NCBI GenBank assembly: GCA_030867685.1
Contig: JAQOWU010000008.1
Coordinates: forward strand, 372,001 to 436,000
Direction of reading: 5' to 3'
Length of the DNA: 64,000 nucleotides
Source: Wickerhamiella versatilis
Taxonomy: Eukaryota
In this document: one piece after another, positions 1,017 to 63,645 of the stretch
Layout: each line of letters opens with the position of its first letter
Position numbering within the stretch: the stretch's first letter is position 1
Notes under the pieces: model-generated
The model's input: the letters and a program-made list of their open reading frames with translations, nothing else
What the model was told of the DNA's origin: nothing
Databases searched by the model: none
Position numbers and translations under genes: made by a program

Positions 1017-1510
1017 CTGCGATTACTCAATCAGCCTTTCATTCGACTGTTAACTTTTAATGTAAAATTAATCGCAAAAAATATAATTGAAATTTTCTAG
1101 TATTCAATATCTAGTCTTAAAGATGCATATTTGTAAAAACTCAGCCAGAACTGCATAAGCGATTTGGTTCAACTGATTTCAAGTGAGGTGTTGAAAGGCT
1201 CGCATTAGCGACTAGATGCAAGTAGTCTGATTGCTCATTCTTACTGTGACGAACCTAATAAAAAGATTTTTCAGATCATATGTTTATTTATCATGATCAA
1301 ATTAGAACGCCTCTGGTATAGTATTTATCATTAGGCTGTGACCCAACCGAGACAGAATTATGCTATATGCTTTACCTCAATTTCAAGCCAACCTATTTAC
1401 GTTAAATAGAGGATGATATGGCATTATACCTCAAAAATGACATTATCAGTGATCCTCACGCTCGTGTGACATGAACTTAGTTCCTGATCAAACTAACCGG
1501 AGTAGTAAGC

Positions 1511-2776
1511 ATGGCACTAATAAAAATATTTGTGAATGTTGTAACAGGGAATCAGGTTACAACATTCCAAGAACAATGTGCCGGTACTGGTGCAAATCGA
1601 GTGGTTCGTCCCTCACTGAGACAAGCTCGCTTTCTTCATCTGGTAAATCCAGAGGTCACCATTGCCAGTCTACATTCTGACCTCGAAAAACAGGCCAGTG
1701 TCACCAGTTCCCAGCTCATGGAAAAAAATTTTTGTCTAATACCAGGAGAATATTCAGTTGGTGATTGTGTCTCTAATGAATCAGAGGTATATCTGGTAAT
1801 TCCTACCAGTGCTCATCATAAAAGAGCTGAGAAACGTGTTCGAAGGAGGAAAAATCGGGTAACAGATGAAAATTCGGAAAACCAACCAGATTATGTTCCA
1901 GAAGAAAACTCCACAGAGGTATCTGAACCTCCTCTTAAGCGGGGCAAAAAAAACTCTTCTGCAACCACAACTCCTTTAAGTACTCCTAAAAAGGGAAATC
2001 AACGGACACATAACGCAGCAAAAGAAAAGTCTAATGGAAATTCTATAAGTTTCCAAAATGCATCCAACGAACGGTCGAAATCGGCTTCGGGTACCACCAC
2101 CTCGAGTGCATCACCAAAGCCTACAGCAAAAATAGCCACAGATCAATCAGAGAAATTGCCCGAGATCAAAGATAAAAGTCCTAGCAACAAAGAGACTCAT
2201 CTTTCACCAGAGGACGGACGAGATGGTCATACTAACGAAGGGGAAGGGCAGGCCCATCCCGGGAAAGAAGACGATGAGGAAGTGGGATCTTCCTCATCTT
2301 TACACAGTTCAGACTCAGATACAGATATGGAAGAACTAGAGCGTTCTCTAAGACGCAAGGCTGTCACTGCTCCTCGTAGTGCTAGTGCCACGCCAACGGC
2401 CTCAGCCTCAGCCTCACCAAGACCTTCCATTTCTACTCAAAAAGAATCAGCAGAAAGTTATCCGGGCCAGACCAATACCACTCCTGATATACCAAAGCAG
2501 GGTTCAGATGAAACCACAAAAAATACAAATTCTGTAAGAGGGCTTGCTCGTCTGCAGGAGCTATCTATTCCAGATGTACACGATTCTGTTCAGTCGCGTA
2601 ATAACGTCAAACTCAATAAAGAGAAGCCACCGTCTGACGTAGAGTCTGCCGAATCTAGCAGCTCCGTCAGTGGTACGAGCGAGAGCTCATCCTCCGAAGA
2701 GGAAGAAGAATCAGCTACAAATAAAAGAGCTGGCTCTGCGGGTAAGAGTGCACTCCGAAGTCTATTAAAAAAGTAA
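1511..2776 (+). CDS. Net1/Tof2/Dnt1-like nucleolar protein (Cdc14-binding N-terminal domain plus low-complexity S/E/K tail)
   Basis: N-terminal RFLHLVNPEVTIASL...GEYSVGDCVSNESEVYLVI resembles the Cytokin_check_N domain (KFLH...DF.V.DVF...VRVI). The rest is disordered and contains basic NLS-like patches. Confidence 0.55.
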   Translation: MALIKIFVNVVTGNQVTTFQEQCAGTGANRVVRPSLRQARFLHLVNPEVTIASLHSDLEKQASVTSSQLMEKNFCLIPGEYSVGDCVSNESEVYLVIPTSAHHKRAEKRVRRRKNRVTDENSENQPDYVPEENSTEVSEPPLKRGKKNSSATTTPLSTPKKGNQRTHNAAKEKSNGNSISFQNASNERSKSASGTTTSSASPKPTAKIATDQSEKLPEIKDKSPSNKETHLSPEDGRDGHTNEGEGQAHPGKEDDEEVGSSSSLHSSDSDTDMEELERSLRRKAVTAPRSASATPTASASASPRPSISTQKESAESYPGQTNTTPDIPKQGSDETTKNTNSVRGLARLQELSIPDVHDSVQSRNNVKLNKEKPPSDVESAESSSSVSGTSESSSSEEEEESATNKRAGSAGKSALRSLLKK

Positions 2777-2853
2777 GCTATTTTAATATGTATAAATAAA
2801 AACAACTATCTTTCTGCTTATAAATTCTACTACTGGGCTGGGTTCAAGCCAAT

Positions 2854-4194
2854 ATGTCCAGCAGTATGAATTATATACCGCCTTGGAGGGAGCCATATTT
2901 TATCGGCATAACTGGCTGCTCGGGTAGTGGAAAGACCACAATGACATCTAATCTTATCCGCCGACTTAACGTTCCTTGGACGGTTTTACTGTCGATGGAT
3001 AATTTTTACAGGCCTTTGTCTGCTGAAGACAGAGAACAAGCTTTTCAATCCAAATTTGATTTTGATTGCCCAGATTGTATAGATTTCAACTTGTTATACG
3101 ATGTGTTAATTCGCTTGAAGCGTGGAGAGAAGACTGATATCCCAATATATGACTTTAAGGAACATGATCGTACTAAAAAAGTTTCAACCCTGTATGGTGC
3201 CAATGTGGTGGTGGTAGAAGGAATTTATGCGTTGTATGATCCTAGGATACTCAATATTCTCGACCTGAAAATATTTGTACAGGAGGATTATGACGTTTGT
3301 ATGGCCCGCCGTCTACATCGGGATATACTCTATAGGGGCCGACAACTAGATTTGAGTATTCAACAGTGGGAACAGTTTGTGAAGCCTAATTATTTGACTC
3401 ACATATTACCCACCCAGAAGCGAGCTGATATGCTTATACCTCGTGGCATCGAGAACCAAGTTGCACTTGACGTCTTGTATTTACATGTGAAACAAATGCT
3501 TCAGCGAAAGTCACGGCAGCACCTCGAAGAATTGAGAAGACTCGGAATCTTATCAGGCGTTAAGCCCTTGGTCACTCAACTTGAACAGTCAAACCAAGTG
3601 ACAGCACTCGTAACCATGATTAAGAGTAGATTCACTTCCCGTGAAGATTTTGTTTTCGCAGTTGATCGAATAGCAAATCGACTAGTCAGTTTGGCCCTAG
3701 ATGAAAGCTTTTCTGATTTGGCCACTACTTCCCCCATGGTCACACCACAGGGGTATGATTACACCGGAACAAATTTACCTTTCGATCATATCTGTGCTGT
3801 AACGATGGTTCGTGGCGGGGAATGCTTTGAACACGCATTGAAGGCCAGTATACCTACAATATTCCTAGGAAGGCTGCTAATTCAATCAGATAATCACACA
3901 GGAGAGCCGAAGCTTCACACCGCTCGTCTTCCGCGGTGGATGGGCCGCGAGTCCAGGCATAAAGTACTTATAACGGAAGCACAGATTCTCTCAGGTGCAG
4001 CAATGGTTATGGCACTGGCTGTACTCGTGGACCATGGAATTCGTCAAGATGATATCGTAATGATCACCCTTTGGGCTTCCGAAATTGCTGTACGTCGCAT
4101 AAGTGCCGCTTTCCCGCACGTACATCAAATTGTGGGGTGTCTCGAGCCAGGAATGTCGTCTCTTGAACTGGATACACGGTACTTTGGTACGTAA
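2854..4194 (+). CDS. URK1: Uridine kinase with C-terminal UPRTase-like domain
   Basis: YIPPW.EPY.IGITGCSGSGKTT P-loop, SMDNFY, YGANVVVVEGIYAL, QWEQFVKP, followed by a UPRTase-like domain. Confidence 0.93.
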   Translation: MSSSMNYIPPWREPYFIGITGCSGSGKTTMTSNLIRRLNVPWTVLLSMDNFYRPLSAEDREQAFQSKFDFDCPDCIDFNLLYDVLIRLKRGEKTDIPIYDFKEHDRTKKVSTLYGANVVVVEGIYALYDPRILNILDLKIFVQEDYDVCMARRLHRDILYRGRQLDLSIQQWEQFVKPNYLTHILPTQKRADMLIPRGIENQVALDVLYLHVKQMLQRKSRQHLEELRRLGILSGVKPLVTQLEQSNQVTALVTMIKSRFTSREDFVFAVDRIANRLVSLALDESFSDLATTSPMVTPQGYDYTGTNLPFDHICAVTMVRGGECFEHALKASIPTIFLGRLLIQSDNHTGEPKLHTARLPRWMGRESRHKVLITEAQILSGAAMVMALAVLVDHGIRQDDIVMITLWASEIAVRRISAAFPHVHQIVGCLEPGMSSLELDTRYFGT

Positions 4195-4237
4195 GTGTTA
4201 GATGCATACATTAAAAATTCAGTCAGACTATTTATTG

Positions 4238-5740
4238 TCAGTATTCGAAAAGATCCTTAATATCAGGATCATGCACTGAAGATAATTTTGGCTCTCTTGC
4301 CTTAGCGACCCAATCTAGCTTCTGTAGTTCTTGAATAGTAATTCTTTGCTCGCGACGTTGCAGGCATTTTTCTACAATTTCTTTTCCGCCTTGCCACTCC
4401 GGCTCAACTGTTGAGCGTTTGTACCAAGTCCAGCATATTCGAGCGATGCGATGCTTAGCTCGGCTCCTAATCCTTGGTCCACTACTATTTGGTGACGAAG
4501 GAGGTGGATCAAATGGCAGTCTCCCTTCCAGCATTGCATAGAGTAAAACACCAAGCGCCCAACAGTCTGTTTCACGGCCATCATAAGGCCTTCCCATGAG
4601 CAATTCGGGAGATACGTAGTCTTCAGATCCGCAGCGAGTTGTAAGTAAGGGGTTCAGTGAGTCAATGCGGCGTGCTAGCCCCAGGTCTGTTAATACTGCA
4701 ATTGGATGAGATAAGTGTATAGGATCCTCAAGTTTTAAAAGGTTCTGGACATCAATATCCAGCAACACATTTTCGAGTTTGATATCACGATGTACCACGA
4801 GGTTTTCATGCAAGTATGCAACTGCATCGACAATGTCAGCAAAAATACGTCTGATTAGGTTACAACTAAGTCTTGAACGAAACTTGGCAATAAGATCGAA
4901 AAGGTCACCACCAGGGCAATATGGTAATACACTGAGAGCTCTTTCGCCATCAATATTGAACGCCAGTAATCGCATTATGCAAGGGTGAGGCGGAAGATCT
5001 ACTAGAAGCTCAATGTCACGTCTTAAGGCCTCCTCAAGCTGAAGACGTTGGGGGGAACCAGGATCACCCCTTAATGTCGTAGTTTTTACTGCGACCAGCA
5101 TATTAAGAGCTTTTGTCATGTTGACCGGCCTTACATGGGAAAGCACGGGTCTTGCCAAGACAACATCACTAAAGCTCCCTTTACCCAAAAAGCTAACACG
5201 CTCCCATGTACTTAGATGCATATCTCGATCAAATGCTAAGTATATATCATTCTCTTTGCTTTGACCTGGGAATACTACTGGGTTTGGAGTTGGGGGGAGC
5301 AATTCTCGGTGAAGACGGGTAGAGCTCTGGCGATTCAAGTCCATTGACGGGACATCTCGAGGCATTCCGCGTTTCGGTATCTTGATATTTGCATCAAGTG
5401 GAATTTGTATCGTTTGAGGTCTTACAACTCTACGTGGGATGTCCTCATTATTATTGTCTTCATCTGCCTCAATGGGGCTAGCAAGGATCATTTTGTGCAT
5501 ACGAGCACTGGGGGGTCGAATAGCTAAACTACTAGGATAACGCACGGAGCCATTGAAAGATTCGAATATCCCATTATCAGCGGATTGTAGCAATGGGGTT
5601 GGGAGAGTGGAAACTTCTCCAAGTGGCGGAGAGCTGTCCCCCAAGTCAGTTATTAGCTGTAGCTGGGGTAAAGTTCCATTTTTTTTCGCTTCTTTATCAT
5701 CTGGTTGCTCATTTGAAGCACCCAAACCTTCATGAACCAT
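4238..5740 (-). CDS. PRR1: Ser/Thr protein kinase, Prr1-like
   Basis: LGKGSFS, VAVK, HRDIKLEN, TDLGLA, RCGSEDYVSPELLMG..YDG, RLPFDPPP are typical of Prr1. Confidence 0.75.
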   Translation of the reverse strand: MVHEGLGASNEQPDDKEAKKNGTLPQLQLITDLGDSSPPLGEVSTLPTPLLQSADNGIFESFNGSVRYPSSLAIRPPSARMHKMILASPIEADEDNNNEDIPRRVVRPQTIQIPLDANIKIPKRGMPRDVPSMDLNRQSSTRLHRELLPPTPNPVVFPGQSKENDIYLAFDRDMHLSTWERVSFLGKGSFSDVVLARPVLSHVRPVNMTKALNMLVAVKTTTLRGDPGSPQRLQLEEALRRDIELLVDLPPHPCIMRLLAFNIDGERALSVLPYCPGGDLFDLIAKFRSRLSCNLIRRIFADIVDAVAYLHENLVVHRDIKLENVLLDIDVQNLLKLEDPIHLSHPIAVLTDLGLARRIDSLNPLLTTRCGSEDYVSPELLMGRPYDGRETDCWALGVLLYAMLEGRLPFDPPPSSPNSSGPRIRSRAKHRIARICWTWYKRSTVEPEWQGGKEIVEKCLQRREQRITIQELQKLDWVAKAREPKLSSVHDPDIKDLFEY

Positions 5741-6117
5741 CTCACTTTACTAATACAGGATAACTGAGAAAGATGTCAACAAAAGATTGGGTTGGATATC
5801 TGGTTTGCTTTATGAATGAATCACATAATGGACTCTTTTTACCCACAGAAATTAAAATCTAGATATCTGTGTTATCTTTTGGAATAAATTTACATTTTTT
5901 ATATGATATACGCGCGCAGCCTAGGCCTGTGATCTCATCACACTATCCGCTGACAAGACGTTGGACAAAATATCTCTGGGAGCTTAGCCTTTTGTCAATG
6001 ATGTCGTTGCATCTAATGCTCAACAACAAGCGAAAATAACCAGTTTAATATATATTGATAGATATAAGAATTTTTGGGCTAATAAAATATATATTTATAC
6101 ATGCGTTCACATTGCAC

Positions 6118-6564
6118 TTAGTTTTTCTTATGAGAACTAGAACTCGTGATTCTCCGGCCCAAGCTTTTAAATTTCTTCCCAAAAGACGGACCCTTTGACT
6201 CGCCGGATGGAGTACGACTACTTGTAGGGCTACTCGGGACCGGGGATCGTGTTGAGCCTGTGCTGGCGGTGACCTTCGAATCCTGAGGCTCAACGGTGGC
6301 TGCTGGTCCCTTTGATGCCTTCTCAGGACCAGGAGCGGAAGCAGGCTGTGGTGATTTTGAAGGTTCCTGAGTTACCGATGATGCTCGTGGTCCCATTACA
6401 GGTGCCTTTCGTGCATCACTCTCAGGCTTTGGGGAGGGCTTTTCCAGATATTGCCCAGAGAACTCTAGATGGTTTGTCTTGTCTCCAGCATGATCAAGTG
6501 AGGCCAAGTCCCCTTGCACAAAGCTTTGTACAAAGTCATCTACGTCCTGATCCTCAGACGCCAT
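6118..6564 (-). CDS. Hypothetical 148-aa S/P/K-rich protein
   Basis: ATG-initiated ORF filling an otherwise empty gap. It has an acidic N-terminus, a disordered middle and a basic amphipathic C-terminus (SFGKKFKSLGRRI). Confidence 0.6.
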   Translation of the reverse strand: MASEDQDVDDFVQSFVQGDLASLDHAGDKTNHLEFSGQYLEKPSPKPESDARKAPVMGPRASSVTQEPSKSPQPASAPGPEKASKGPAATVEPQDSKVTASTGSTRSPVPSSPTSSRTPSGESKGPSFGKKFKSLGRRITSSSSHKKN

Positions 6565-6915
6565 AAAGAAACTACCTTAAAGGAAAGCGTTAATCGAAGG
6601 GATGGATCAGATGACAAATTGAGTTTCATAGTCGTCCAAAAGTCATAGCCTGACCTAGTTAAAAAGCTTGGAAAGTGATGCAATAATTCAGGATTAAGAA
6701 TTGTTCCTTACATCGTTTATGCTGGCACGGTGGCGGCCACGATTCAAGACGTCATATACCTTTTCCGTTCGGAAAAAGGTTACTGAAGAACAAGAATTCT
6801 ATTCTCTAATAAAAATGATACATAACTTCGAGTCTCGCTCTACTCGAGAAAGGAAATTCTCAGGGAGCTAAAGCTCATGTATGCAGGAAGAACATCCATT
6901 ACATAATTAAACTTG

Positions 6916-7725
6916 ATGGAGGAAGTGTCGGCATCTCAGCGAAGGGATAAGCGGAGAAATAACATTGCAGCTCGCTTGCGTAGCCTGAATGAAGTTTTCG
7001 AACAAGACAGAAACCAGCAATATAGCGAGCTTCTTGATAGCCTCAGGCGATCTCTATACGCACTCCATGCAGGGTCAGACACGGAATATCTGGAGAAACT
7101 TGGAGACCTGCAAGAATTCAGGGATAACAGACTAATGGAACTCTATCTCTGGGCTCAATATCAGACTGAGCAGGCAGAAAATCAATATAATGAAGATGTT
7201 GAGCAGGCCACTTCAAACTATGAATCAATGCTTCATACAGCGAAAGATAAGCTTCGTGCACGACTAGAACAGCAGCGTAAAAGGCTTTTTGATGATCGTA
7301 GCTTGTTGGACATTTCAACAGACCATTCCTTTTTTGCGGCTGCAGCGAACCCCGGTGCTGCAGGTAATCATCATACACCTTCTACAAGGGCAGCCGTAGC
7401 AGCGGTGTCTTCTGGCCTAACGGCTGCAGAACGTAGAAACCTTAGGAGGAGAGATTATGCTGATGAACTATCAGGGGTAAGTGGTAATGAGGGATCGAGT
7501 CCGTCCAGACGGGGAGTTCGGGGCGTTGGAGGCTCTGATACAGATACTGCTGGTGCGGCAACTGATCGTGAAATTGATGCTGTTTTTAAGGATTTTGACA
7601 CAACAAGACCCCGTCATGCAACAAAGAGCTACCAGGGTGTGAAAACCCTAAAATACGAAGAAGGCTTACAGGACATCGCTGCAATTCACGATGAGCGCCG
7701 AAAGTTGAATCGAATGCTGCGATAG
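6916..7725 (+). CDS. SDS3: Sds3-like Rpd3L/Sin3 HDAC complex subunit
   Basis: SQRRDKRR...F...R...Y...L..L..LH.G...EY, then a long coiled coil and RRNLRRR. First ATG is 6916; the track start at 6913 is TTG. Confidence 0.75.
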   Translation: MEEVSASQRRDKRRNNIAARLRSLNEVFEQDRNQQYSELLDSLRRSLYALHAGSDTEYLEKLGDLQEFRDNRLMELYLWAQYQTEQAENQYNEDVEQATSNYESMLHTAKDKLRARLEQQRKRLFDDRSLLDISTDHSFFAAAANPGAAGNHHTPSTRAAVAAVSSGLTAAERRNLRRRDYADELSGVSGNEGSSPSRRGVRGVGGSDTDTAGAATDREIDAVFKDFDTTRPRHATKSYQGVKTLKYEEGLQDIAAIHDERRKLNRMLR

Positions 7726-7791
7726 TTTTGTTGATGTGGTATAATTTAAGACCTATTTTTTCGAATCTCTAGGAAACCGGTTCGATTTGTA

Positions 7792-9495: not shown

Positions 9496-9679
9496 TATGA
9501 ATAGTTATATATGCGATATCATATATTGAAGTGACAAGAAATTGGCTACATATGATAGAATTAACTACACCCTTTTTATGCTAGACTTTCTTCGCACAAG
9601 TAGACAAGTACCTTTTCCTCCGAGATCCTGACTAATCAAGGCAACACGGAAGTGAGGTTAGCTAGCTACGGTAAAGCCC

Positions 9680-10891: not shown

Positions 10892-11041
10892 TTAGAATCA
10901 TTGACTCCTAGGCTATTGAACAAATTGGTGGAAAATCGTATTGTACACCCTCTTCAAGCATCACAAAACGAGAAAGCAAGAAACTCTTCAAAGCATCAAA
11001 TGAGTAAATATCGCAGTTTAGTTATCATATTAGTAATTCCA

Positions 11042-11737: not shown

Positions 11738-11754
11738 ATCCGTAAAAAAAAATT

Positions 11755-17211: not shown

Positions 17212-17213
17212 GG

Positions 17214-17230: not shown

Positions 17231-17288
17231 TGTCTTAGTAATAACATGACTATTTTCCATTCATAGACTAAGATGATACTATTCTACA

Positions 17289-19530: not shown

Positions 19531-19631
19531 ACGCACTGCGATAGGCTCACTCAGATGAGGTTAGTCAGAAGCCCACCTACACTTTTGAGATATTAGTCAA
19601 TAGTAAATCCATACCTACAAAATAGAATAAT

Positions 19632-22226: not shown

Positions 22227-22706
22227 AGAAAAATATTATATAATACGGTAGGCTCCCTTTTTTAGCAGTGTGATTCAAAATAATAATGAAGAAAACCATG
22301 GAGTATTTTTAAATTCCACATTTGTCTAAGGGTATATAAAAATGTTTGATGTAGCAATAATCGTATTCCTTATTTACAGAGTTAGGCCGTGACTGACGAC
22401 TATGCAGGACAGCCATTCCCTCCTCCCATATATTTTCTTATTATTTTTTGAGGCAAGAGAGTTAGTGTCTAGGAGTACAAGTAACTGCTGAGCGCAAGAA
22501 TGCTTTAACCACGTGCACTACTCTAAGAAAAAATTACTCAGGTATCTATATATCTAATAGAACGGATAAGAGACTGAAAGATACATCTATTCTACATACA
22601 AAGTATTTGAAAATATCTTCTCGCAGAGCGGATCACTGGGTATATTGGCTTCTGCGTCTCTTTAACGCTGCTAATCACTTGCTGACCTAATAGCCACTGG
22701 TCAACA

Positions 22707-26923: not shown

Positions 26924-26959
26924 TGTCTTTCCCGGGGGATTATGAAAAGTAATCTGCTC

Positions 26960-26966
26960 TGACTAA
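26960..26966 (+). promoter_or_regulatory. TGACTAA element in the 64-bp PRS1/deaminase divergent spacer (one example of a recurrent start-proximal motif)
   Basis: Exact AP-1/Yap-type heptamer 21 nt before the deaminase ATG. The same motif recurs near many starts (see findings). Confidence 0.45.
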
Positions 26967-26987
26967 TACCGATAGCTTGATTAACTC

Positions 26988-27549: not shown

Positions 27550-27558
27550 CTGCGGGCA

Positions 27559-33531: not shown

Positions 33532-34092
33532 AGCCCGTGGCGAAAAATCTGAATAAGCAGCAGCGACAGCGATGTTTAACTGCGAACTTAGAAGTCACAG
33601 GAATGAATTTTGGTTGGCAGATGTAGCATAAAAAGACACATGTCATTGATTTTGGTCACAGTCCCTTTAGGTATTTGTACTGACAGCCTATATCGTACTT
33701 TCAATTTCACATTTTTTGACTAATTTCGATTTAACCTACAGCTTATGCTGCTAGTGTTAAGACACCCTTCACGAAGCCTTTATTCTGCAATTGCTGATTA
33801 TAGCGTTTTGTCGTAGATCCCTATTTTAGTCTAATCAGGATCGATTCGTAATTGGAAACACCAAATGTCAGTTTACCCTCTCCGTAGTATACTGACAAGT
33901 TAGAGTCTCGTATAATTCCAAGCCCTTAAACTGCATCCACCATTTATCTTTTAATTATGGCTACTCGTATACGTATTTTATATACAGGCTTCGAACTCGA
34001 TTTGTGTGGGTCGCGTTCCGAAAACCAGCCACCCTAGTGAAGGCTTACTTGAGAATATACATTTGGCGTCGAACAAGTTTTGCTAAGCACCT

Positions 34093-35205
34093 ATGGAGTC
34101 TGAGGATAGTGAGTCCTCCAGAAATAGTAGCATATGGTCGCAGATGCCCACGCCTGAGTTGAGCACCGCTGCTGCAGTGCCAGTGGCTCGCACTGATGCT
34201 GCTAAGCAAGTCCAGATACAGCGGGTCAGAGATTCCATTACGGAGATGAGCAATATACTTTCTGAGCTTCGTGCTATGCGAGAGCAGCAATGGTCTCCCC
34301 TTGCACAAAGTGATATGCCCGAATCGCCTGCAGTAACAGCCGATGAGACGGTATACCTAGACGCATATGAACAACCGCCACAAAGTGAGGATGCTGGGAG
34401 CTCAAAACACAATAGACGAGCATCATATAGTGCCCGGAGTACTAGTGGCCACCCGGAGAGAAAGCATAGGCAGACATTATCTGCCTCGACTGGCACTAGT
34501 CTTGATAAACCATTCCGTCCCCGTCCGTCTACCGAATTCGAGCGTAGATTCGCTCATAACGTGTCATCTCTACCAGAATCCTCGAAATCAACATCTCAAC
34601 CACCGCTTCCTGTCTCAGCACCACCGCCATTCTCGTCGCGCATCACACCTCGAGTGCAAGCACAATCAACATCGATGGACAGACCAGAGGCAGAAGATAT
34701 ATCTAAAAATGCAAAGGAAAAAATCTTAGCCAGTGGATCTAATGCTGCGCGATCATCTGATGCGGGTCAGACTGCTGGGGGAGAGAGACAAATAGCCTCG
34801 GTACAGGAACAGCCACTGGCGGATAACAATCAAAAACCTAAACAAAGGCACAGGCACAGACACAAACATAAAAGTAGGGAACATCAGGGTCAGAACCTCT
34901 ACCAGGCAGATGCTCACAACCAGGGCCAGGATCCCGCTCAGAAACCCGACGCTAATGTTAGGACGAAAACAGCAGACAAGACACGTCGATCATTTGCCAA
35001 AACGAGCATTGAATCACTTCTTGCACATAGCCCGGCATATGAATTGGAGGAGATTGATTTACCGGCACCTGAACGTCGTTTAATGGAAAAGTTCATTGAC
35101 TCCCTCAGTAAACTGAGTATTGAGGTGCAAATGGATGAAGCGAAACGGAAAGAAGGCCGAAGAAGACTTAACAATGCACTTCGTGCCCTTGAAGGTTGGA
35201 TTTAA
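34093..35205 (+). CDS. Disordered protein with Nba1-like conserved C-terminal helical motif
   Basis: C-terminal LP..E.RLMEKFIDSLSKL...EG.RRLNNALRALEGW resembles the yeast Nba1 C-terminus as I recall it (unverified). The remainder is low complexity. Confidence 0.55.
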   Translation: MESEDSESSRNSSIWSQMPTPELSTAAAVPVARTDAAKQVQIQRVRDSITEMSNILSELRAMREQQWSPLAQSDMPESPAVTADETVYLDAYEQPPQSEDAGSSKHNRRASYSARSTSGHPERKHRQTLSASTGTSLDKPFRPRPSTEFERRFAHNVSSLPESSKSTSQPPLPVSAPPPFSSRITPRVQAQSTSMDRPEAEDISKNAKEKILASGSNAARSSDAGQTAGGERQIASVQEQPLADNNQKPKQRHRHRHKHKSREHQGQNLYQADAHNQGQDPAQKPDANVRTKTADKTRRSFAKTSIESLLAHSPAYELEEIDLPAPERRLMEKFIDSLSKLSIEVQMDEAKRKEGRRRLNNALRALEGWI

Positions 35206-37542: not shown

Positions 37543-37593
37543 GCCATCCACGGATTCAACTTCTTGTGTGTACGTGCTTACTTGAGATAGTTT

Positions 37594-48995: not shown

Positions 48996-49399
48996 TCTTA
49001 AAGCTGCTAACCTACTACTTTCTAGCGTTATATCTCAAGGATAGCTTAATATAAATTTTCAGTGTAAAATTCTGAAATATGGATATATTTAAGGGCATTC
49101 GATCTTAGTCAATACTCGGTTTGATGTGTCACCACTGAAAAGCGATTCTAGGTATGTTGATCTAGCTGAACCAGGCATACTCTGACTAGTCTAGTCTTTT
49201 TCTACTTACATTTGGCCAGTCTCATATTCCTGGGTAGTGAACTATCATCTATAGGACCTGTCACTACAAAATCCTTTTAGCACCTCTTTCACTGACGTAA
49301 AATCTACTTATCAGTCAAAATTAGCCTTACTAATATAATCATATTTCAAGCGGTTCGTAAGGGTACCACGGATATTACATCATTTCAAGGAATTTCCAA

Positions 49400-51938: not shown

Positions 51939-52276
51939 CATACGACCCGTATACCAAGATTCACAGGCATGGAAAGAGGTTAAATATCAAAATAATTATG
52001 GTACTGATGTCAATAGTCTTAAAATTGGTAAAAAATGGGAGCTCTGTATGATGTTTTGTCGGTAGACATTTACAAGTGTTAATTGGCCTTCTCAGGTAAA
52101 GAACTCGCCAGTTGCCTTGATATACAAGAAGCAAGATAATTTGACTACAAAAATCATGCTAACAGTCATGTTACTCTTTTTATTCTATTTACAACACTAA
52201 AAAAGAGAAAACACACCAATAAATAAGATTATTAATAAATGTGGGACCTTGTGGGTCAGGTACCACTGATAATGAA

Positions 52277-54994: not shown

Positions 54995-55088
54995 GTAGCT
55001 AGCTTTGACGTATATTATGTAACATCACTTGAAACGTTAAAGTAAATTGGCATGTTTATGCTAGCCCAGCTAGCTATACTATTCGTGA

Positions 55089-55736
55089 TTAAGTACTAAT
55101 AGAGCCCTCTAATGCACTGATCTGTTGTGAGTTTCCTTGAGATTCAACTGGCTGCGCAGAATGTTGTGTCAGGCCATCTTTCGATATGATATGAATATCC
55201 ACTCCCTTGAAATCTATTGGCATTCTTGCTTGTACTTCATCAACACATCGATTAGCCAGGCTTATGGCATCCTCGGTGGACATACCTGGCTTCCAGTATC
55301 TATCCAAGGTTGACAACACATAAAACTGTGCATAGCCGTGAGCCGCGTATGGTAGTTCCACATTAGTTCCCAAATAATCGATCCAGTTCAGAGATACTTT
55401 GGATAGATTGGGATCATAACCAGCCACCAACACATTGACTTGGAACGGCTTCCGCGACCTAATGGACTTCGCCAGCTCAGTCCTCGTGAATGCTGCTACA
55501 GCATGAGGAGACATTTCAATACCATGACGATAGCCATAGAGCTGCACATTAGCCTTTATGAACTCGACAAAATTGATTGTATCCCCTGCTTCGCCAGAAA
55601 AAGCCAACGCGGAGTGTTTATTGACTGGAGAAACTTTACAGTCGTTCGTACTCATCACAGAAATACCTCTTGACAGCGCCTTCGATGTGACAAGGATGGC
55701 TGCGTCCTTAGACTGAAGACCGAGAAGGATATCCAT
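55089..55736 (-). CDS. PRE1: 20S proteasome beta-4 subunit
   Basis: MDILLG...RGISV, GEAGDT.NF.E.I.AN.QLY, SIRSR.P.QVN.L, IDYLGT..ELPYAAHGY, RMPIDFKG. ATG at 55736. Confidence 0.95.
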   Translation of the reverse strand: MDILLGLQSKDAAILVTSKALSRGISVMSTNDCKVSPVNKHSALAFSGEAGDTINFVEFIKANVQLYGYRHGIEMSPHAVAAFTRTELAKSIRSRKPFQVNVLVAGYDPNLSKVSLNWIDYLGTNVELPYAAHGYAQFYVLSTLDRYWKPGMSTEDAISLANRCVDEVQARMPIDFKGVDIHIISKDGLTQHSAQPVESQGNSQQISALEGSIST

Positions 55737-56166
55737 GTGGCGTGAAGTGTGCTTAGTCAAGCACCTAGTAGTATAGGAAGTCAATAGGCATGACTGATAT
55801 ATTTACACCGTGATAAGCTGGTATTACTCTGGGTTATATTAAAATTAAATTGCGAAATGCATGTAGCTTCCTATCTTATGCAGATATCAACAGCACCCCG
55901 TTGTTGCTTAGAATCAAGCAATCGAAGTGAGTGCTAACTGGGACTTCAAGAGGAAACTGTCTAAGTTTCAAAGGCCTGAAAGCAAGAAATATCACCATCA
56001 GCATGATTAGGTGAAGTCCTCATAGCAGTAAAGATAAGATGATAGTTGCAATGACGTAAATAGTAAATGAACATAACGCCATTTTAGCATTGTGCCAGAT
56101 GTAAACATAGGAAAAAGAGGAACTCAGAGAGGCATTACAGGGGACACATCATAGGCCAAATTATGC

Positions 56167-56943
56167 CTATGAAAGGATGCTGACGGCGACAAGCACCGTA
56201 ATCACCAGTATAATAAGCAGGAATATACATGACCATTTACCACGGTTTCGTTGATGTGCCTCTGCTTTATTAAGTTCTCGGGACGCGCTTGCTGTTTGGC
56301 CAGCTAGGTTGGTAATATTCTCTTCGATAGTATCAAGCTGCTGACCTTGCTCCGTAACAAGCACTCCCAAATCTTGAAATAGCGTATTGATCTCGCGAAT
56401 TCCCCGGTGAACATCGGCAATTTCACGTTCTCTTTCATCAACGAGCGAAGTGTGTATATTTAACGCCTCTTCACCAACTTCATCTAAGACTTGCACTTGC
56501 TGTTGGCGCTCGAGTAAAGGTGTTTGCTCATTTGCAGTACGCTTATCATCATTCAATGCAACTGATCCTTGCTCACCACCACCACCATCAACGTGAGTGG
56601 CCGTATTTTGCACAGCAGAGGATACCTCGGCTTGGACGCTCGTGACCTCACGCAATAATACATCATATTGGGATGCAATGCTCTGACTCTGCTGTTTCTG
56701 CCGCAAGCTAAGGATTGTAGGGTCCCACGAAGACAAGTCAACCACCAATCGATTTGAGGTTGTACAAGAATCGGTCACGGTATTGACCTCCCGCATTAAA
56801 TTCTCCTGGGACGTTCTGACTTCATGCCCACGTGATAACCTTTTTATAAGAATACGCGTCCTTTTCAGATGTGAATTGAGGTCGTAGAGACTGTCAGATG
56901 CTTTCTGAGCTAGCGCTTCGAAGGACAGGCTCTCAACATCCAT
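56167..56943 (-). CDS. Endosomal/vacuolar syntaxin (Pep12/Vam3-like Qa-SNARE)
   Basis: EQTPLL dileucine motif, SNARE domain (EREREI..I.EIN.LFQDL..LV.EQG..LD.IEEN), C-terminal TM. Confidence 0.88.
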   Translation of the reverse strand: MDVESLSFEALAQKASDSLYDLNSHLKRTRILIKRLSRGHEVRTSQENLMREVNTVTDSCTTSNRLVVDLSSWDPTILSLRQKQQSQSIASQYDVLLREVTSVQAEVSSAVQNTATHVDGGGGEQGSVALNDDKRTANEQTPLLERQQQVQVLDEVGEEALNIHTSLVDEREREIADVHRGIREINTLFQDLGVLVTEQGQQLDTIEENITNLAGQTASASRELNKAEAHQRNRGKWSCIFLLIILVITVLVAVSILS

Positions 56944-57268
56944 TAGTCATCAGATTTAGTGCTCACGATCCTTTGGCGATAAAAAATTGTATACGAGTAT
57001 GAATTAAATTTAATTATTCCAGTGAGAATATACCTATCATTAAAAATTCAAGAAAGAACCTACTTCGCATTAGACCTGAATGTACATTCTTTCTCCTAGC
57101 ATTTTCTGCACTTGCCTCGATATTCACTCTAATCCGATAATCTAGATTTCGCCACCTATTATCGACTAAAAACTTGCACCTCCCAGAATATTTCGAGGGC
57201 TATGGTATAAATCACGGCACAAATTAATATTACAAACCCTTATCCACTTGTCGACCAACTCTCCCAAG

Positions 57269-57279
57269 ACGCGTCGCGT
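57269..57279. promoter_or_regulatory. Tandem MCB (MluI cell-cycle box) elements of POL1
   Basis: ACGCGTCGCGT ending 21 bp before the POL1 ATG. POL1 is a classic MBF target. Confidence 0.75.
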
Positions 57280-57300
57280 TCTCCATCTAACTGCTGCTAA

Positions 57301-60300
57301 ATGTCGAGGCTTGCTAAGTTGGCGGAACTTAAACGTCTTAGAAATGAGGGAGTAACGCGTGAAACACAGTACAGTGATAGTGATGAGGATAAAGAACTCA
57401 GTGATTGTGGCATACCTGATGCGGATTTTGTGGTGGACGATATAGGTGATGGTGAATATATATATGGAGAGACCGAAGAGCCTCCCCCAAAGCGAAATTC
57501 GCGAAATGAGTCTAAAACTACCACGCCTAGGGATAGGAACGGGCGTCGCGATGGGGATATAGGGTCTTTCTTTCGAAGACCATTGCCAACAAGTAAACCG
57601 AGTTTCCGTGGTATGGGCCAACTTCCTAATTTAGCCAAGACAGAGAGTGCAGGCACTCAAGAGCTTGATGATATTATCAGTAGTGTTGGAAGCAGTCGCA
57701 AACGTACCAGGAGCCGGCCTTCCGTCGACACACCAACACCCGCCCCTCGAATTTCCCGACCGCGACCATTCGCCATACCGAGAATGATGCCTCCGCAGCT
57801 TCCCACGGAGCCGCAGCCAAATGTTGAGGATCAGCAGACCTTAGATACCGAAGAAGCTGCACTCAATGATCCACAGGTAATTGAGCCGCCTATCCAAGAA
57901 GCAGCAGACACAGAGAATTTGCGTGTTCCTGAGCCTATTCTTGACTCGGAGCCTCCTAGTGGACCGAGCATTGAGTCGAATGATGATCTTCCTAGCGGCA
58001 CTCCTCTCACACCCGCTCCTAGTGATGACCGAAATGGTCTTGACGAGGAAATCATGGGAACCGGTTCATACGGAAGTGCAAGCTGGCGTACGAACTTAGT
58101 TTCAGAGCCCACTCAAATCAATCAGAACCAGCAGGCGCCAACTGAATTCGAGGATGGGGGAGAGCTTCAGTTTTATTGGCTAGATTATGCAGAGGTCGGC
58201 ACCTCACTTGTGCTATTTGGACGAACCAGTGCTGGTGAGTCTGTTTCACTTGCTATACGAGGTCTTATGCAGGATGTTTATTTCTTGCCAAGACCTGGAA
58301 AAACGCCTCATGATGTTCAGGCAGAGATTCGACCTCGTCTCAACCTGCCTGTGTTTCGATCTAAGCCTGTTCAGCGCAGATATTGCTTTGGCGATCCCAA
58401 TGTCCCACGTGGTGAGTCCACATATCTTAGCGTACTTGTGCCTCATGGTCATAATTTTAACCTGCAAAGCGAAGGTGAGACTTACTCTCATATATTTGGC
58501 AGAACAGAAACACTCTTTGAGTCGTTTGTTCTTTCGAGAAATGTGATGGGACCTTGCTGGTTGACAGTAACGCAAGTTAAGAGAATGCAGAATGCAACCT
58601 GGAGCCGCATTGATGTCGAATGCCAGAGCCCATCGTGCGTTACGCCAAAAGAAAACGACACGATGCCTCAGCTCACTCTTATGAGTATTTCACTCCGAAC
58701 CGCATATGTGCAATCGGTAAAAAACAAGCCAGCGCATCATGAGATCGTAGCTATCAGTGCTCGTATATATAGAACCGATCATGACACTACTACATCTCCA
58801 ACTGAGCTCCCAAATACACTGATCACAGGTGTCCGTCCTCCACCTGGAGAGGTAATGCCGCCGGGTTTCAAAGATCTTTTGGCTGAACATAACAGTAAAG
58901 TCAAGACTGTGTTTGAGCATCGAAGTGAGAGACAGCTGATCGGGTGGTTCATGGCTAAATTGCAACAACTCGATCCAGATGTATTTTTGGCTCACTCATC
59001 CACGAACATTCACCTAGCCATTTTATTACAGAGAGCGCTGGATCTTGAGGAGCGTTCATGGAGTCGACTTGGACGCTTGAGACTTGCGCGAAAACCGAAA
59101 CAAGTGACACAGTGGAGCGTCCAGCAGGTCTGCGCGGGTAGGTTGATTTGCGATTTGAACAATACATTTGGACAGGAACTTACTCGTGGTAGTTGCTCTA
59201 GTTTCACTCTAGATGAAATGACTCGTGTGTTTCTTGACCAGGCCCGTGTTTCCCATGATTATAACGTGACAAGCTCTCCATGGTTGGCCCAGGGTGCCGC
59301 TGGGATCATGAAAATAATACGGCACAATGAAGCAGATACACTTTATACTATTGCTATTGTGATCAAATTACAGATGCTAGCCTTGAGTCGGAATCTCACC
59401 TCGCTAGCGGGTAATTCATGGGCCCGCACATTGGCTGGTACACGATCAGGTCGTAACGACTTCTTGCTGATGCATGAATTCACGCGTAACCAGTACATTG
59501 TTCCCGATAGACCGTCACGTGAAAACGCTAATTCTGGCGATAAGCACGAGAAGTATCAGGGTGGTGCCGTATTTGAGCCAGAGAAAGGTCTTTATCGAAC
59601 CCCAGTGCTGGTTATGGACTTTAATAGTCTGTATCCTTCTCTTATTCAAGAGTATAATATTTGTTTTACGACTATAACAGATGCGGAGGCGGAGCTCACC
59701 ACTAAGGAAGCTTCCCATAAACCGCAGGGAATCCTACCAAAAGTGATTCAAGCACTGGTGCAACGACGACAGCAAGTGAAAAAGCTAATGAAGGACCCTA
59801 AAGCAACCAAGGAGCAATTGGCTCAATGGGATACCCGCCAACAAGCTTTAAAGCTTACTGCAAACTCCATGTATGGATGTCTGGGATTGGCAGGATCGAG
59901 ATTTGCTGCCAGATCTCTTGCTATGCTCGTAACAGCGAAAGGTCGGGAAACATTGCAACGAACGCGTGACCTGGCCGAACAGAATCATCTCCAAGTTGTG
60001 TATGGTGATACTGACTCGGTCATGATTCATACTGCTGCTAGTGAGTATAATGAGGCTATCCAAATTGGCAATAAATTCAAGAGGCTGGTAAATGAGCAAT
60101 ATCGTGCAATGGAAATTGATATTGATAATGTCTTCGGGTCGCTCTTGCTGTATGCTAAAAAGAAGTATGCGGCTATGAACATGGTGCCCATGCCTGATGG
60201 TAGCATTAAACAGGAACTGCAAATTAAGGGTCTTGATCTGCGTAGGCGAGAATATTCTCAAGTATGCAAGGATGCATCAATGAAAACTCTTGAATTATTG

Positions 60301-61293
60301 TTTAACTCTGGAGATGACTCTTTTGAAACGATAATTTCTTATCTGGAAAAGCTAGGGAATGACATGCGTACTGGCAAAATAGGTCTGAGCAAGTATGTTA
60401 TACGAAACCAGTTGTCCAAAGAAGTAGCAGATTATCCCGAACATCAGCGCTTACCACAACTCAAAGTAGCCCGTGATCGTATCGCAGCGGGTGACGTCGT
60501 CCGTGCCAAAGATGTAGTCGCGTACGTTATAGCGGCAGGTACCGCACCGCCTGCGGAACGTGCATACACTTTATCAAGTCTCCGCAAAGATGGCCTTGAG
60601 CTCGATATAGGATGGTATCTGGAGCATCAAATCTTACAGCCTGTGGAGCGCCTATGCTTGTATGTTCCAGGATTTGATGCTGTTAGACTCGCTGAGGCTT
60701 TAGGTGTGAGTCGTAAAGCAGCGATCACCAATGGTGCAGCTCATTCATCCTATCAAGGTCTTGAAACTGCTGTTGATGATACTGAAAGGTTTGCCGATTG
60801 CAAGCCTTTGGAGCTTCGAAGCACATGTGGTAATTTATTTCATTACACAGGCTTGGAAGATACCAAGCTCACTAATAATGGCATTATCTGCCCTCAGTGC
60901 TCCAATTGTCTTTCCCCTGAATCTGTGATTGTCCAGCTTGAAAAAGCTGTGCGTTCCGAAATATCCAGATATTATCAAAACTGGTTAGTGTGTGAAGAGC
61001 ATGACTGTGGACATCGTACACGGCAAATAAGTGTCTATGGTCGCCGATGTTGTCAACCTCATTGCCGTGGAACGGTCCGGTATGAATACACTGATAAGCA
61101 GCTTTACAACCAACTAAGCTACTATGCTGCCCTCTTTGATGGAAAGCGGGCTGATCCCAAGCAAATGCGGCAGGCGGCTCTGGCTCAGCATAATCGACTA
61201 CTATTTTACCGTGCCGGAATGTCCGTTGATAAATACTTGAAGCAAAATGGTCGCCGATATGTGGACATGGGGAGCATATTTGCACGTGTTTGA
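57301..61293 (+). CDS. POL1: DNA polymerase alpha catalytic subunit
   Basis: DFVVDD.G.GEY, FYWLDY, MGPCWL, KYQGG.VFEPEKG, MDFNSLYPS, QQALKLTANSMYGCLG, YGDTDS, C-terminal Cys-rich domain. Confidence 0.97.
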   Translation: MSRLAKLAELKRLRNEGVTRETQYSDSDEDKELSDCGIPDADFVVDDIGDGEYIYGETEEPPPKRNSRNESKTTTPRDRNGRRDGDIGSFFRRPLPTSKPSFRGMGQLPNLAKTESAGTQELDDIISSVGSSRKRTRSRPSVDTPTPAPRISRPRPFAIPRMMPPQLPTEPQPNVEDQQTLDTEEAALNDPQVIEPPIQEAADTENLRVPEPILDSEPPSGPSIESNDDLPSGTPLTPAPSDDRNGLDEEIMGTGSYGSASWRTNLVSEPTQINQNQQAPTEFEDGGELQFYWLDYAEVGTSLVLFGRTSAGESVSLAIRGLMQDVYFLPRPGKTPHDVQAEIRPRLNLPVFRSKPVQRRYCFGDPNVPRGESTYLSVLVPHGHNFNLQSEGETYSHIFGRTETLFESFVLSRNVMGPCWLTVTQVKRMQNATWSRIDVECQSPSCVTPKENDTMPQLTLMSISLRTAYVQSVKNKPAHHEIVAISARIYRTDHDTTTSPTELPNTLITGVRPPPGEVMPPGFKDLLAEHNSKVKTVFEHRSERQLIGWFMAKLQQLDPDVFLAHSSTNIHLAILLQRALDLEERSWSRLGRLRLARKPKQVTQWSVQQVCAGRLICDLNNTFGQELTRGSCSSFTLDEMTRVFLDQARVSHDYNVTSSPWLAQGAAGIMKIIRHNEADTLYTIAIVIKLQMLALSRNLTSLAGNSWARTLAGTRSGRNDFLLMHEFTRNQYIVPDRPSRENANSGDKHEKYQGGAVFEPEKGLYRTPVLVMDFNSLYPSLIQEYNICFTTITDAEAELTTKEASHKPQGILPKVIQALVQRRQQVKKLMKDPKATKEQLAQWDTRQQALKLTANSMYGCLGLAGSRFAARSLAMLVTAKGRETLQRTRDLAEQNHLQVVYGDTDSVMIHTAASEYNEAIQIGNKFKRLVNEQYRAMEIDIDNVFGSLLLYAKKKYAAMNMVPMPDGSIKQELQIKGLDLRRREYSQVCKDASMKTLELLFNSGDDSFETIISYLEKLGNDMRTGKIGLSKYVIRNQLSKEVADYPEHQRLPQLKVARDRIAAGDVVRAKDVVAYVIAAGTAPPAERAYTLSSLRKDGLELDIGWYLEHQILQPVERLCLYVPGFDAVRLAEALGVSRKAAITNGAAHSSYQGLETAVDDTERFADCKPLELRSTCGNLFHYTGLEDTKLTNNGIICPQCSNCLSPESVIVQLEKAVRSEISRYYQNWLVCEEHDCGHRTRQISVYGRRCCQPHCRGTVRYEYTDKQLYNQLSYYAALFDGKRADPKQMRQAALAQHNRLLFYRAGMSVDKYLKQNGRRYVDMGSIFARV

Positions 61294-61341
61294 AAATAAA
61301 GATACTCTAGTGTTTTTTAGCCTACTAGACATATATTTAAT

Positions 61342-62343
61342 TTAGCGTCCTTCGGGAGGTATCCATACGCTATCCTCGTAGTCTTCCTCCCAGGAGCTCG
61401 CGGGGATAGAAATAGGACCAAGCTTATTTGCCTCCTCAAATGCAGAAATCATTCCAAAATTTACATCCTTTGGCTGCTCAAATGCCGGAGATACCCTTGC
61501 TGAACTAGAAGATGCATAAGGATCAATGTTACCACCTTGTGAGCCATTCCCAACGCCAGGAGGCTTTGTATCGAGGTCTGGGGACACCCCCTCGGTTTGA
61601 TTACCATGGCCTGCTAATGGATCAAAGACCTCACCGCTCGCATCAACAAAATCTTTTTCTGTTGCAGTTACCTCACGAGAACGAAGCTTCTCCATGAGTG
61701 ATAAAAACTTAGACTGCTTCAGCTTTGAGCTGATACCAGAATCTACCTGGTTAGAGGAGACTGTAGTAATAACTTCGTGAGCAATTTCACTCAAATCTGT
61801 ATCCTTATCACTGACATCAGTTTCGATTTTATTAGCTTGATTTTCTGCCGAAGCGAATGCCCTATCAAATGCCACAGGATCAAACTGAGGTGCTTGAGGA
61901 ATCGACGTCGGCGGTTTGTTGACCATTCGTGGATGAATATATGCTAGTGATGCAGGTGCCATAGTTGGCTGTGGATGACTATATCCCATTGTTGGCGCCA
62001 ATGGCCTTTGATATGCATTGGGTATTTGATTTTGCTGGGGTCCATGCCGAGACTGATCTAACGAAAGTCGACTGAACTCCGCCGACCAGTCTGTCTGTGG
62101 TGTAAGATGAACTGGTGCACGTTGTGGTGCCTGGTGTATTGGTGCCTGTTGATTGATTTGTGTAGGTGCGGTGGCAAGTTGTTCGAAAGATCTACTATAA
62201 TCCTCGGCTGACAGGCTGTAACTCGCGCGTAAATCCCTGGGACCATTCTGAGAAATAACACGATCCCTCTGAATACTCCTATCATTAGAAGCAACCTTCC
62301 CCAAATGCGAAAGAGGATTATTTTGTCCTCCGCAAGTAGCCAT
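61342..62343 (-). CDS. PEX20: PTS2 co-receptor Pex20 (Pex18/21 family)
   Basis: N-terminal ubiquitinated Cys motif (MATCGGQNNPL), WxxxF (DWSAEF), Pex7-binding K...SKFL.LM.KL, and no TPR domain. Confidence 0.8.
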   Translation of the reverse strand: MATCGGQNNPLSHLGKVASNDRSIQRDRVISQNGPRDLRASYSLSAEDYSRSFEQLATAPTQINQQAPIHQAPQRAPVHLTPQTDWSAEFSRLSLDQSRHGPQQNQIPNAYQRPLAPTMGYSHPQPTMAPASLAYIHPRMVNKPPTSIPQAPQFDPVAFDRAFASAENQANKIETDVSDKDTDLSEIAHEVITTVSSNQVDSGISSKLKQSKFLSLMEKLRSREVTATEKDFVDASGEVFDPLAGHGNQTEGVSPDLDTKPPGVGNGSQGGNIDPYASSSSARVSPAFEQPKDVNFGMISAFEEANKLGPISIPASSWEEDYEDSVWIPPEGR

Positions 62344-62594
62344 GTGGTTCTGCGGGGTAGTAATTGCTATTGTAAGGGTACTTGTAATCCTGAGTTCAAG
62401 TGCATCATTGTCATGATCACGTGATATAGAAATGTCTTAATTCGTCTTTTTTGCGAGATATAGCGTGCCCACATGACGATCTCTTCACAATTTCCTTCTT
62501 GTGATAGCTTGGGCGCATCTCTGTGTGAACCTCAATTCGTCGCTATCGACGAATCGCAGAGCGTGTTTACCTCAGCACGCAATCCAGTCTGGGT

Positions 62595-63344
62595 ATGTAC
62601 AGAAGGCTTGCATTTGTGGCGGGAGGTGTTGCTGCTAGCGGACTGACAGTTCCTGTGGTACTTGCAGAAACCAATAAGAAATACAAGGCCATCTACGATG
62701 ATGATGTGAGCCCGGTGAAACCTTTGCCTGGCACTATAGAACCCTCCACCCGGGCTGAAAACGGTGTCACGCGCGTAGAGACTCGATTTGGGGAACTCCT
62801 TGACGTCGAAACAATTAGTGATGAAGATAACGGCGTTGTTGTTCATGTAAGTAAGGTCTTGAGCAGTTACGTTGAAGTGGCGCGACAATATCTTAATACG
62901 GGAGTTGATGAAACAACGAGGATTTCCGGAGACCTTTTTGAGCGGTTTATTCGAGACGAGCGTGGTGCTGCTAAAACCATAGCATCTCTGAAAGATGAGC
63001 ATGAGGATGTCTTGCCCGCTGCTATTTATGTTCTTATTGCTGGCCTCACCGGTAGTATTCTGAGTCGTCGCCGAAATATTCTGTTTCGAGGTCTAGCGCC
63101 AATTATTTTTGGCACCGGTGCTTTTGCTTACTTGCTGCCAAGAACTTTTGATAATACAAGATCGTTAGCCTGGAAACTTGAGAAGGAGCAGGTACCTGAA
63201 CTGGCCGAAAAACAGATTGAGGCACAGAAACAAGTCACTGATCTCCAAAAGAAGGCACAGGACTTTTATGATGACGGTGAAAAGGAAGTTCAAAAGGGTT
63301 GGAAATCAACTCGGCAGACAATTAAAGATTGGACTGGTTGGTAG
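62595..63344 (+). CDS. MICOS subunit Mic26/Mic27 (apolipoprotein O family)
   Basis: K.IYDD, E..LP..IYVLIAGLTGSILSRRRNI.FR..AP, Y.LP.TF.NT. Confidence 0.85.
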   Translation: MYRRLAFVAGGVAASGLTVPVVLAETNKKYKAIYDDDVSPVKPLPGTIEPSTRAENGVTRVETRFGELLDVETISDEDNGVVVHVSKVLSSYVEVARQYLNTGVDETTRISGDLFERFIRDERGAAKTIASLKDEHEDVLPAAIYVLIAGLTGSILSRRRNILFRGLAPIIFGTGAFAYLLPRTFDNTRSLAWKLEKEQVPELAEKQIEAQKQVTDLQKKAQDFYDDGEKEVQKGWKSTRQTIKDWTGW

Positions 63345-63645
63345 AACAATTAAATTTAGACCTTACCGCATAAAATATGGTTTTACACACGTTATCCAAC
63401 ATCAACCCCCTGTTTGGAGTTTGATTTTGTTATGCTGTGTCGCCACTATATTCTAGTATATAAATCAGCTAGTTGCAAGATGAACTGTGATTTTTGTTCG
63501 TCAATCAAGTTATAATATATATGAAATGTCGAAACATCCCGTTCCAAGAATAACTAAGGCGATTCAGATAGCCCACTATTTTTCCACAATTATCAGGGAG
63601 TGCAATTATTAGTAATCATTGTCGCGTGGGTTCGTGGGTGTAGGA

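Follow-up and report, generated by a model that had tools for sequence, protein, structure and literature searches.

An oriented Yap-type heptamer next to the start codons of unrelated genes in a compact Wickerhamiella genome: a candidate promoter-proximal bZIP site

The closest described counterpart of the sequence element treated here is the Yap1/Pap1 response element (YRE) of yeast basic leucine zipper (bZIP) proteins. A review (PMC6545440) gives TGACTAA, TTAGTCA and TTACTAA as Yap1 sites, identifies TGACTAA with the SV40 AP-1 element that led to the discovery of Yap1, and places Saccharomyces cerevisiae examples at −414 and −508/−516 from the ATG, in stress regulons. The repertoire of general regulatory factors is described in another paper as turning over among yeasts, with novel motifs specific to Yarrowia lipolytica (PMC2897762), and Y. 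lipolytica is reported to initiate transcription in a classic non-scanning mode with TATA about 30 bp from the transcription start site (TSS) (PMC7849388). Here we examine the heptamer T[TG]A[CG]TAA in 64,000 nt of the Wickerhamiella versatilis genome (contig JAQOWU010000008.1, positions 372,001 to 436,000), referred to below as the window. A first-pass annotation of this stretch had noticed the heptamer, oriented, close to the start codons of many unrelated genes, and had proposed it as a candidate lineage-specific promoter or leader element.

The gene set comprised 40 long, non-overlapping open reading frames (ORFs), two of which run off the ends of the window. ORFs make up 86.5% of the window (GC content approximately 45%), and the 39 spacers hold 8,614 nt of intergenic DNA (13.5%). 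When the sense strand was scanned from −55 to +1 around each start codon, 11 copies of T[TG]A[CG]TAA were found compared with 0.86 expected from a first-order Markov model (Poisson probability 2.2e-9), an expectation in agreement with the roughly one chance match estimated in the first-pass annotation. The pattern was the single best of approximately 774,000 (all 7-mers with exactly two two-fold degenerate positions), and its p-value was matched in 0 of 150 and in 2 of 800 dinucleotide-preserving shuffles, a comparison that the annotation had proposed and that was run within the window. It was also the best pattern for 40-nt zones (10 matches) and 75-nt zones (13 matches), and the best patterns of the neighbouring zones at 55-110 and 110-165 nt reached only ~2e-6, typical of the null. 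By individual word, TGACTAA was observed 5 times versus 0.19 expected, TTAGTAA 3 times versus 0.23, TGAGTAA twice versus 0.17 and TTACTAA once versus 0.27. The oriented motif near start codons is confirmed as real within the window.

The choice of start codon for the DUF2470 gene bears on the number of copies. The first in-frame ATG of this ORF is at 11000, which would put the copy at 11030 inside the ORF. A relative with 71% identity is conserved from the Met matching 11042 and diverges upstream of that Met, which favours 11042, as chosen in the first-pass annotation, and reveals a second sense copy at 11001-11007. Codons 1-14 of the longer ORF (11000-11041) are AT-rich and not conserved in this relative. 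Judged by this conservation pattern, ATG 11042 is probably the real start of the gene; with it, the zones from −55 to +1 hold 13 copies in 12 of the 40 genes.

The position of the motif was found to follow the start codon closely. Sense copies had a density of 5.0 per kb at 0-55 nt from the ATG, 1.15 at 55-110 nt and at most 0.6 beyond. In six long spacers of 494, 377, 345, 430, 357 and 301 nt the motif starts at −13, −13, −29, −23, −6 and −37, respectively, still close to the ATG, so that crowding by short spacers is not the cause of its position. Across copies, motif starts range from −6 to −51, with gaps to the ATG of −1 to 44 nt. The distance to the stop codon of the upstream gene varies from 33 to 408 nt, and the motif is anchored to the downstream gene.

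The sequence of the element is sharply bounded. One-base variants were at background in the start-codon zones (13 versus 12.6 expected), and the canonical AP-1/Gcn4 site TGASTCA had no copy in all the intergenic DNA of the window. Whether the motif begins with TGA or with TTA, its central base is C or G. Preferences in the flanks were weak, with T at +8 in 7 and C at +9 in 6 of the 12 copies, and the copies have no longer sequence in common and are therefore not repeats. Eight of the asymmetric copies read in the sense direction and one in the antisense direction (p = 0.039). This upholds the orientation bias claimed earlier; the lone exception is the deaminase copy as read for divergent PRS1, for which the first-pass annotation had already entered a caveat. 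Five distal intergenic TGASTAA copies showed no orientation rule, and distal copies of the motif were not followed by ORFs. No link to TATAWAW was detected, which was present in 4 of the 12 motif genes versus 8 of the 28 others. Comparison with other yeasts, another check suggested at first pass, used as outgroup 99 upstream zones from 12 loci of distant yeasts, the only kind of match from one metagenome scan (PRS1 34-58% identical over the whole match, with 75% in one 201-residue segment at locus L010). These zones contained 2 sense matches versus 2.17 expected, indicating that the excess is not a generic property of yeast leaders.

Upstream ATGs carry information on the leaders of these genes. 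Over all 40 genes, their density was 0.25 per 100 nt within 20 nt of the start codons (2 in 800 nt) compared with an intergenic background of 1.8; it was 1.25 per 100 nt at 20-40 nt and at background beyond. Depletion restricted to the last ~20 nt indicates very short 5′ leaders, and suggests that the leaders of this yeast are unusually short. In the 12 motif genes, 11 ATGs were counted in the 25 nt preceding the motif, whereas the 215 nt from motif to start codon contain no ATG. The probability of this boundary is 0.003, and it rises to 0.014 once account is taken of in-frame ATGs that the ORF definition rules out. Since upstream ATGs stop at the motif, the motif stands at the start of an ATG-free leader. 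Either transcription would start at or just after the motif, or the stop codons of the motif would neutralise the upstream ATGs. The segments between motif and ATG have a GC content of 54%, compared with 40% in the 25 nt upstream of the motif. Contigs of a strain diverged by ~2% and guessed to represent RNA (X14) break mostly in spacers, yet two adapter-tipped ends lie inside clear coding sequence, making X14 uninformative on the TSS.

We favour, with a probability of roughly 0.45, the reading of T[TG]A[CG]TAA as a lineage-specific, promoter-proximal Yap-type bZIP site located at or just upstream of the TSS. The motif has the form of two bZIP half-sites, TGA or TTA on one side and TAA on the other, joined by a central C or G, and is most likely read by a bZIP dimer as double-stranded DNA. 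This DNA-level reading is preferred because C and G are equivalent at the centre of both the TGA and the TTA forms, as in a dyad on duplex DNA. The site lies 0-50 nt from the ATG with its TAA half toward the gene. Given its likely TSS-side placement and its occurrence in ~30% of unrelated housekeeping genes, it probably serves as a proximal activator or TSS-positioning site in short, mostly TATA-less promoters. In a bolder version, this yeast lineage would have turned a Yap/AP-1-type bZIP site into a core promoter element that has a fixed orientation and selects the TSS in roughly a third of all genes, the bZIP protein nucleating or positioning the pre-initiation complex on ultra-short TATA-less promoters. 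We regard this version as doubtful. The HomolD box system of fission yeast is its suggested functional analogue. Of the interpretation given at first pass, the real, sharp, start-codon-locked and 8:1 oriented element has stood, as has its identity with the bZIP Yap response element, TGACTAA and TTACTAA being among the Yap1 sites in PMC6545440; that a bZIP protein binds the heptamer, that transcription starts beside it and that it influences transcription is what we infer from its placement and form.

Several observations weigh against the bZIP-site reading. All statistics come from these 40 genes in a single window, and over the window as a whole the motif count is at chance, with 33 strand matches versus 34.15 expected from shuffles; coding sequence is depleted of the motif, and 22 of the strand matches are intergenic. 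A cruder motif discovery by seed plus one mismatch stayed within its null. When position within intergenic DNA was the only criterion, the motif came 13th among the patterns, with 10 of 22 (p = 7.6e-5), and 11 matches for some pattern were reached in 1 of 150 shuffles. Because a single class of patterns entered the family-wise test, the real look-elsewhere penalty is somewhat larger. The orientation bias comprises nine copies, a small sample. A bZIP dimer normally binds in either orientation, and bZIP binding by itself therefore does not account for the bias. In three copies the gap to the ATG is 0-6 nt, so that a TSS at the motif or beyond it would allow hardly any leader. Finally, the motif genes form no recognisable regulon by Pfam, neither for oxidative stress nor for drug response.

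The strand bias and the tight position near the ATG would be expected if the heptamer were an initiator-like core promoter element, recognised by the general machinery and not by a bZIP protein, with transcription starting within or just after it, for example at a T-A step. An ATG-free leader that begins at the motif and the missing relation to TATAWAW are consistent with this, and classic non-scanning initiation is reported for relatives such as Y. lipolytica (PMC7849388). However, the C/G centre and the TGA/TTA alternation follow the dyad logic of bZIP sites, unlike any known initiator, the gap to the ATG is variable (−1 to 44 nt), and the five distal intergenic TGASTAA sites obey no orientation rule, so that we consider an initiator unlikely. 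A signal in the leader RNA would also account for strict sense orientation near the ATG. This could be the site of an RNA-binding protein, or a cassette in which TGA or TAG plus TAA close two frames before the main ATG, with ribosomes from upstream ATGs terminating there and reinitiating. Upstream ATGs do cluster just before the motif, 6 of the 16 within 60 nt end at a stop inside it, and other STOP-N-STOP heptamers are mildly raised (11 versus 6.2). Yet among the 36 STOP-N-STOP heptamers only TGA[CG]TAA stands out (TGAATAA has 0 matches and TGATTAA 1), TTACTAA closes just one frame, and a centre at which C and G are interchangeable suits a duplex DNA site better than a signal recognised in RNA. 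Termination in the motif, roughly 6 of 8 versus 4 that we estimate from the frames, is within chance. The stop-codon cassette, raised as an alternative in the first-pass annotation, is disfavoured on account of this chance-level termination and because other STOP-N-STOP words are not comparably enriched, and we judge an RNA-level role as a whole to be rather unlikely.

A DNA-bound factor might instead act as a roadblock or insulator, halting polymerases that read through from the upstream gene and shielding the next promoter in spacers of 50-400 nt. The motif was found in 9 of 22 genes arranged in tandem with their upstream neighbour versus 3 of 18 in divergent arrangement, and its position is locked to the downstream gene rather than to the upstream stop codon. 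However, the difference between the two arrangements falls short of significance (p = 0.17), three copies belong to divergent spacers, which no upstream gene reads into, and a roadblock does not require an orientation bias; this role seems improbable. A terminator of the upstream gene is likewise an unlikely identity for the motif, given the variable distance to the upstream stop codon (33-408 nt) and the three copies in divergent spacers. Chance together with post-hoc choice, that is, a degenerate heptamer fitted to a small sample of genes, would be consistent with the chance-level whole-window count, the non-significant seed scan, the 12 other patterns that do equally well or better by the positional statistic, and the 1 of 150 shuffles with 11 matches. 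On the other hand, only 2 of 800 shuffles reach the p-value of the motif family-wise, the pattern leads at three zone lengths while the neighbouring zones stay at ~2e-6, and TGACTAA alone exceeds its expectation (5 versus 0.19). Orientation and the boundary of upstream ATGs are independent features in agreement with one another, and the likelihood of a chance origin is low. Lastly, [TG]ACTAA copies resemble intron branch sites, and the first-pass annotation had listed a branch-point-like signal, here of introns in the 5′ untranslated region (UTR) or proximal to the 5′ end, among its alternatives. Some copies do read GACTAAC or TACTAAT and are followed by YAG, and a GTATGT precedes the marginal copy at 49327 by 175 nt. 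Nevertheless, a relaxed 5′ splice-site hexamer occurs upstream in the spacer for just 3 of 12 genes, YAG is missing from the stretch between motif and ATG in 6 of 12 genes, AGTAA forms, which do not fit CTRAY, account for 6 of 14 proximal copies, several spacers total 53-101 nt, and no convincing intron was found in the window. This alternative was rejected as very improbable.

The copies are collected in Table 1. All 12 copies given in the first-pass annotation were reproduced in coordinates, strand and gap to the ATG.

Table 1. Copies of T[TG]A[CG]TAA upstream of start codons in the window; words are written on the sense strand of the downstream gene, and positions are those of the window.
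Word	Position	Strand	Gap to ATG (nt)	ATG	Downstream gene	Spacer and remarks
TGAGTAA	1023-1029	−	6	1016	M18 aminopeptidase	divergent, 494 nt
TTAGTAA	5747-5753	−	6	5740	protein kinase	tandem, 377 nt
TGACTAA	9629-9635	+	44	9680	Anp1/Van1 family	
TGAGTAA	11001-11007	+	34	11042 (probable start)	DUF2470	overlaps upstream ATG 11000; absent from the first-pass annotation
TTAGTAA	11030-11036	+	5	11042	DUF2470	within the ORF if the start is 11000
TTACTAA	17235-17241	−	23	17211	Mif2/CENP-C	tandem, 77 nt
TGACTAA	19561-19567	−	30	19530	zf-CHCC (NDUFS6-like)	tandem, 101 nt
TGACTAA	19593-19599	−	62	19530	zf-CHCC (NDUFS6-like)	second copy in this spacer
TGACTAA	26960-26966	+	21	26988	cytidine/dCMP deaminase	divergent, 64 nt, common with PRS1 (reads TTAGTCA)
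TTAGTAA	38534-38540	+	12	38553	95-aa ORF	tandem, 53 nt
TGAGTAA	39157-39163	+	22	39186	PKC1-type kinase	tandem, 345 nt
TTACTAA	49327-49333	+	66	49400	145-aa ORF	marginal; beyond the 55-nt zone
TGACTAA	55753-55759	−	16	55736	proteasome beta-4 (PRE1)	tandem, 430 nt
TGACTAA	56943-56949	−		56943	syntaxin/SNARE	divergent, 357 nt; final A is the A of the ATG
TTAGTAA	63609-63615	+	30	63646	choline/ethanolamine kinase	tandem, 301 nt

The families assigned by Pfam to the motif genes were M18 aminopeptidase, kinases, Anp1, DUF2470, Mif2, zf-CHCC/NDUFS6, deaminase, PKC1-type kinase, proteasome beta subunit, SNARE and choline/ethanolamine kinase, and the gene labels of the first-pass annotation agree with them in substance. 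The nearest named relatives of the proteasome subunit are from Wickerhamiella sorbophila (57%) and Starmerella bacillaris (58%), and those of PRS1 are from Sugiyamaella and Blastobotrys (54-55%), matches that probably put this yeast in or near the Wickerhamiella/Starmerella clade. Proteins of a sister species, on an 82.5-kb contig, are 71-89% identical to those of the window. A PRE1 relative from this sister species starts at the same ATG, a check for an N-terminal extension that is uninformative on upstream sequence. Scans of the window for tRNAs and against Rfam gave no matches. Divergent gene pairs in the window are parted by spacers of as little as 51 nt (37543-37593) and 64 nt (26924-26987), and one convergent pair by 17 nt (11738-11754); with such spacers, promoters or terminators must overlap neighbouring genes.

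Further observations concern individual copies and other short words. At 49152-49349 (+), the marginal TTACTAAT copy (49327) has a GTATGT 175 nt ahead of it and an AAG 14 nt behind it, before ATG 49400; this segment is a weak candidate for a 5′-UTR intron. One X14 contig joins 711 directly to 1454 and skips 742 nt (712-1453). Lost with them are roughly 100 codons at the start of the M18 aminopeptidase gene, the TGAGTAA copy of this gene and the greater part of the divergent spacer. The ends of this skip are non-canonical (AC..AT), and a deletion variant or an assembly artefact is possible. Sense copies of TCGCAG are situated close to ATGs at 1017-1022 (−), 11011-11016 (+), 19536-19541 (−), 22621-22626 (+), 33580-33585 (−) and 62554-62559 (+). 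Three copies read ATCGCAG, TCGCAG twice comes directly after a TGAGTAA copy, and all three intergenic ATCGCAG copies fall in sense zones; TCGCAG is common in coding sequence too (35 in the window). It may be a second proximal promoter word. TAAGCAC has three sense copies, at −9, −38 and −19, and AGT[AG]AGC has four within 40 nt of the ATG, the genes concerned having ATGs at 34093 (+), 37542 (−), 55736 (−), 1511 (+), 19530 (−) and 42831 (+). Neither of these two words is significant alone.

Should the pattern hold genome-wide, a highly compacted eukaryotic genome would have put the site of a stress factor to new use as a general promoter element locked in position and strand, and a bZIP-type member would join the known turnover of general promoter factors among yeasts. 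The element would then make it easier to study how spacers of 50-100 nt can work as promoters, help in annotating start codons and TSSs, and assist the design of minimal promoters in industrially used relatives (Starmerella, Wickerhamiella).

Short, position-dependent promoter elements are known from several other systems. The initiator (Inr) and the HomolD box of Schizosaccharomyces pombe are strand-specific, position-locked near the TSS and TATA-independent, and occur in a subset of housekeeping genes. The heptamer likewise has a strand-specific orientation, at 8:1 with p = 0.039 in a small sample, but its sequence is unlike theirs and it has no fixed distance to the ATG (gaps of −1 to 44 nt). 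Microsporidia have extremely compact genomes, near-ATG promoter motifs and very short leaders; these are unrelated organisms with other motifs, and the analogy is functional only.

In sequence, the nearest match is the YRE, with which the motif has in common the heptamer and the dyad logic with a C/G centre. All 15 copies in Table 1 were scored as conforming to the YRE sequence, taken as TTA(C/G)TAA or TGACTAA/TTAGTCA. In contrast to the S. cerevisiae sites, placed hundreds of nt upstream in the review, the copies here lie 0-50 nt from the ATG, are oriented 8:1 and occur in 12 of 40 unrelated genes. They do not behave as the orientation-independent activating sites, typically 100-500 nt upstream, that characterise the YRE, since their starts lie at −6 to −51 and their density is at background beyond 110 nt. 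Nor do their genes constitute an oxidative-stress or drug-response regulon by Pfam, being a housekeeping mix from aminopeptidase to lipid kinase that includes subunits of a mannosyltransferase and of complex I. Full-text literature searches returned no description of a near-ATG Yap-type element in Wickerhamiella/Starmerella yeasts, which is not proof of absence.

In distribution, the motif resembles the sites of general regulatory factors in budding yeasts (Reb1, Abf1, Cbf1), which are also short, sharp motifs in many unrelated promoters; in this window the heptamer marks a large fraction of such promoters (12 of 40 genes). It differs in lying nearer to the ATG, and no bZIP-type heptamer is among the general regulatory factor sites named in the part of PMC2897762 considered here. 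If this lineage initiates transcription like Y. lipolytica, a proximal, positioned element of this kind would be plausible.

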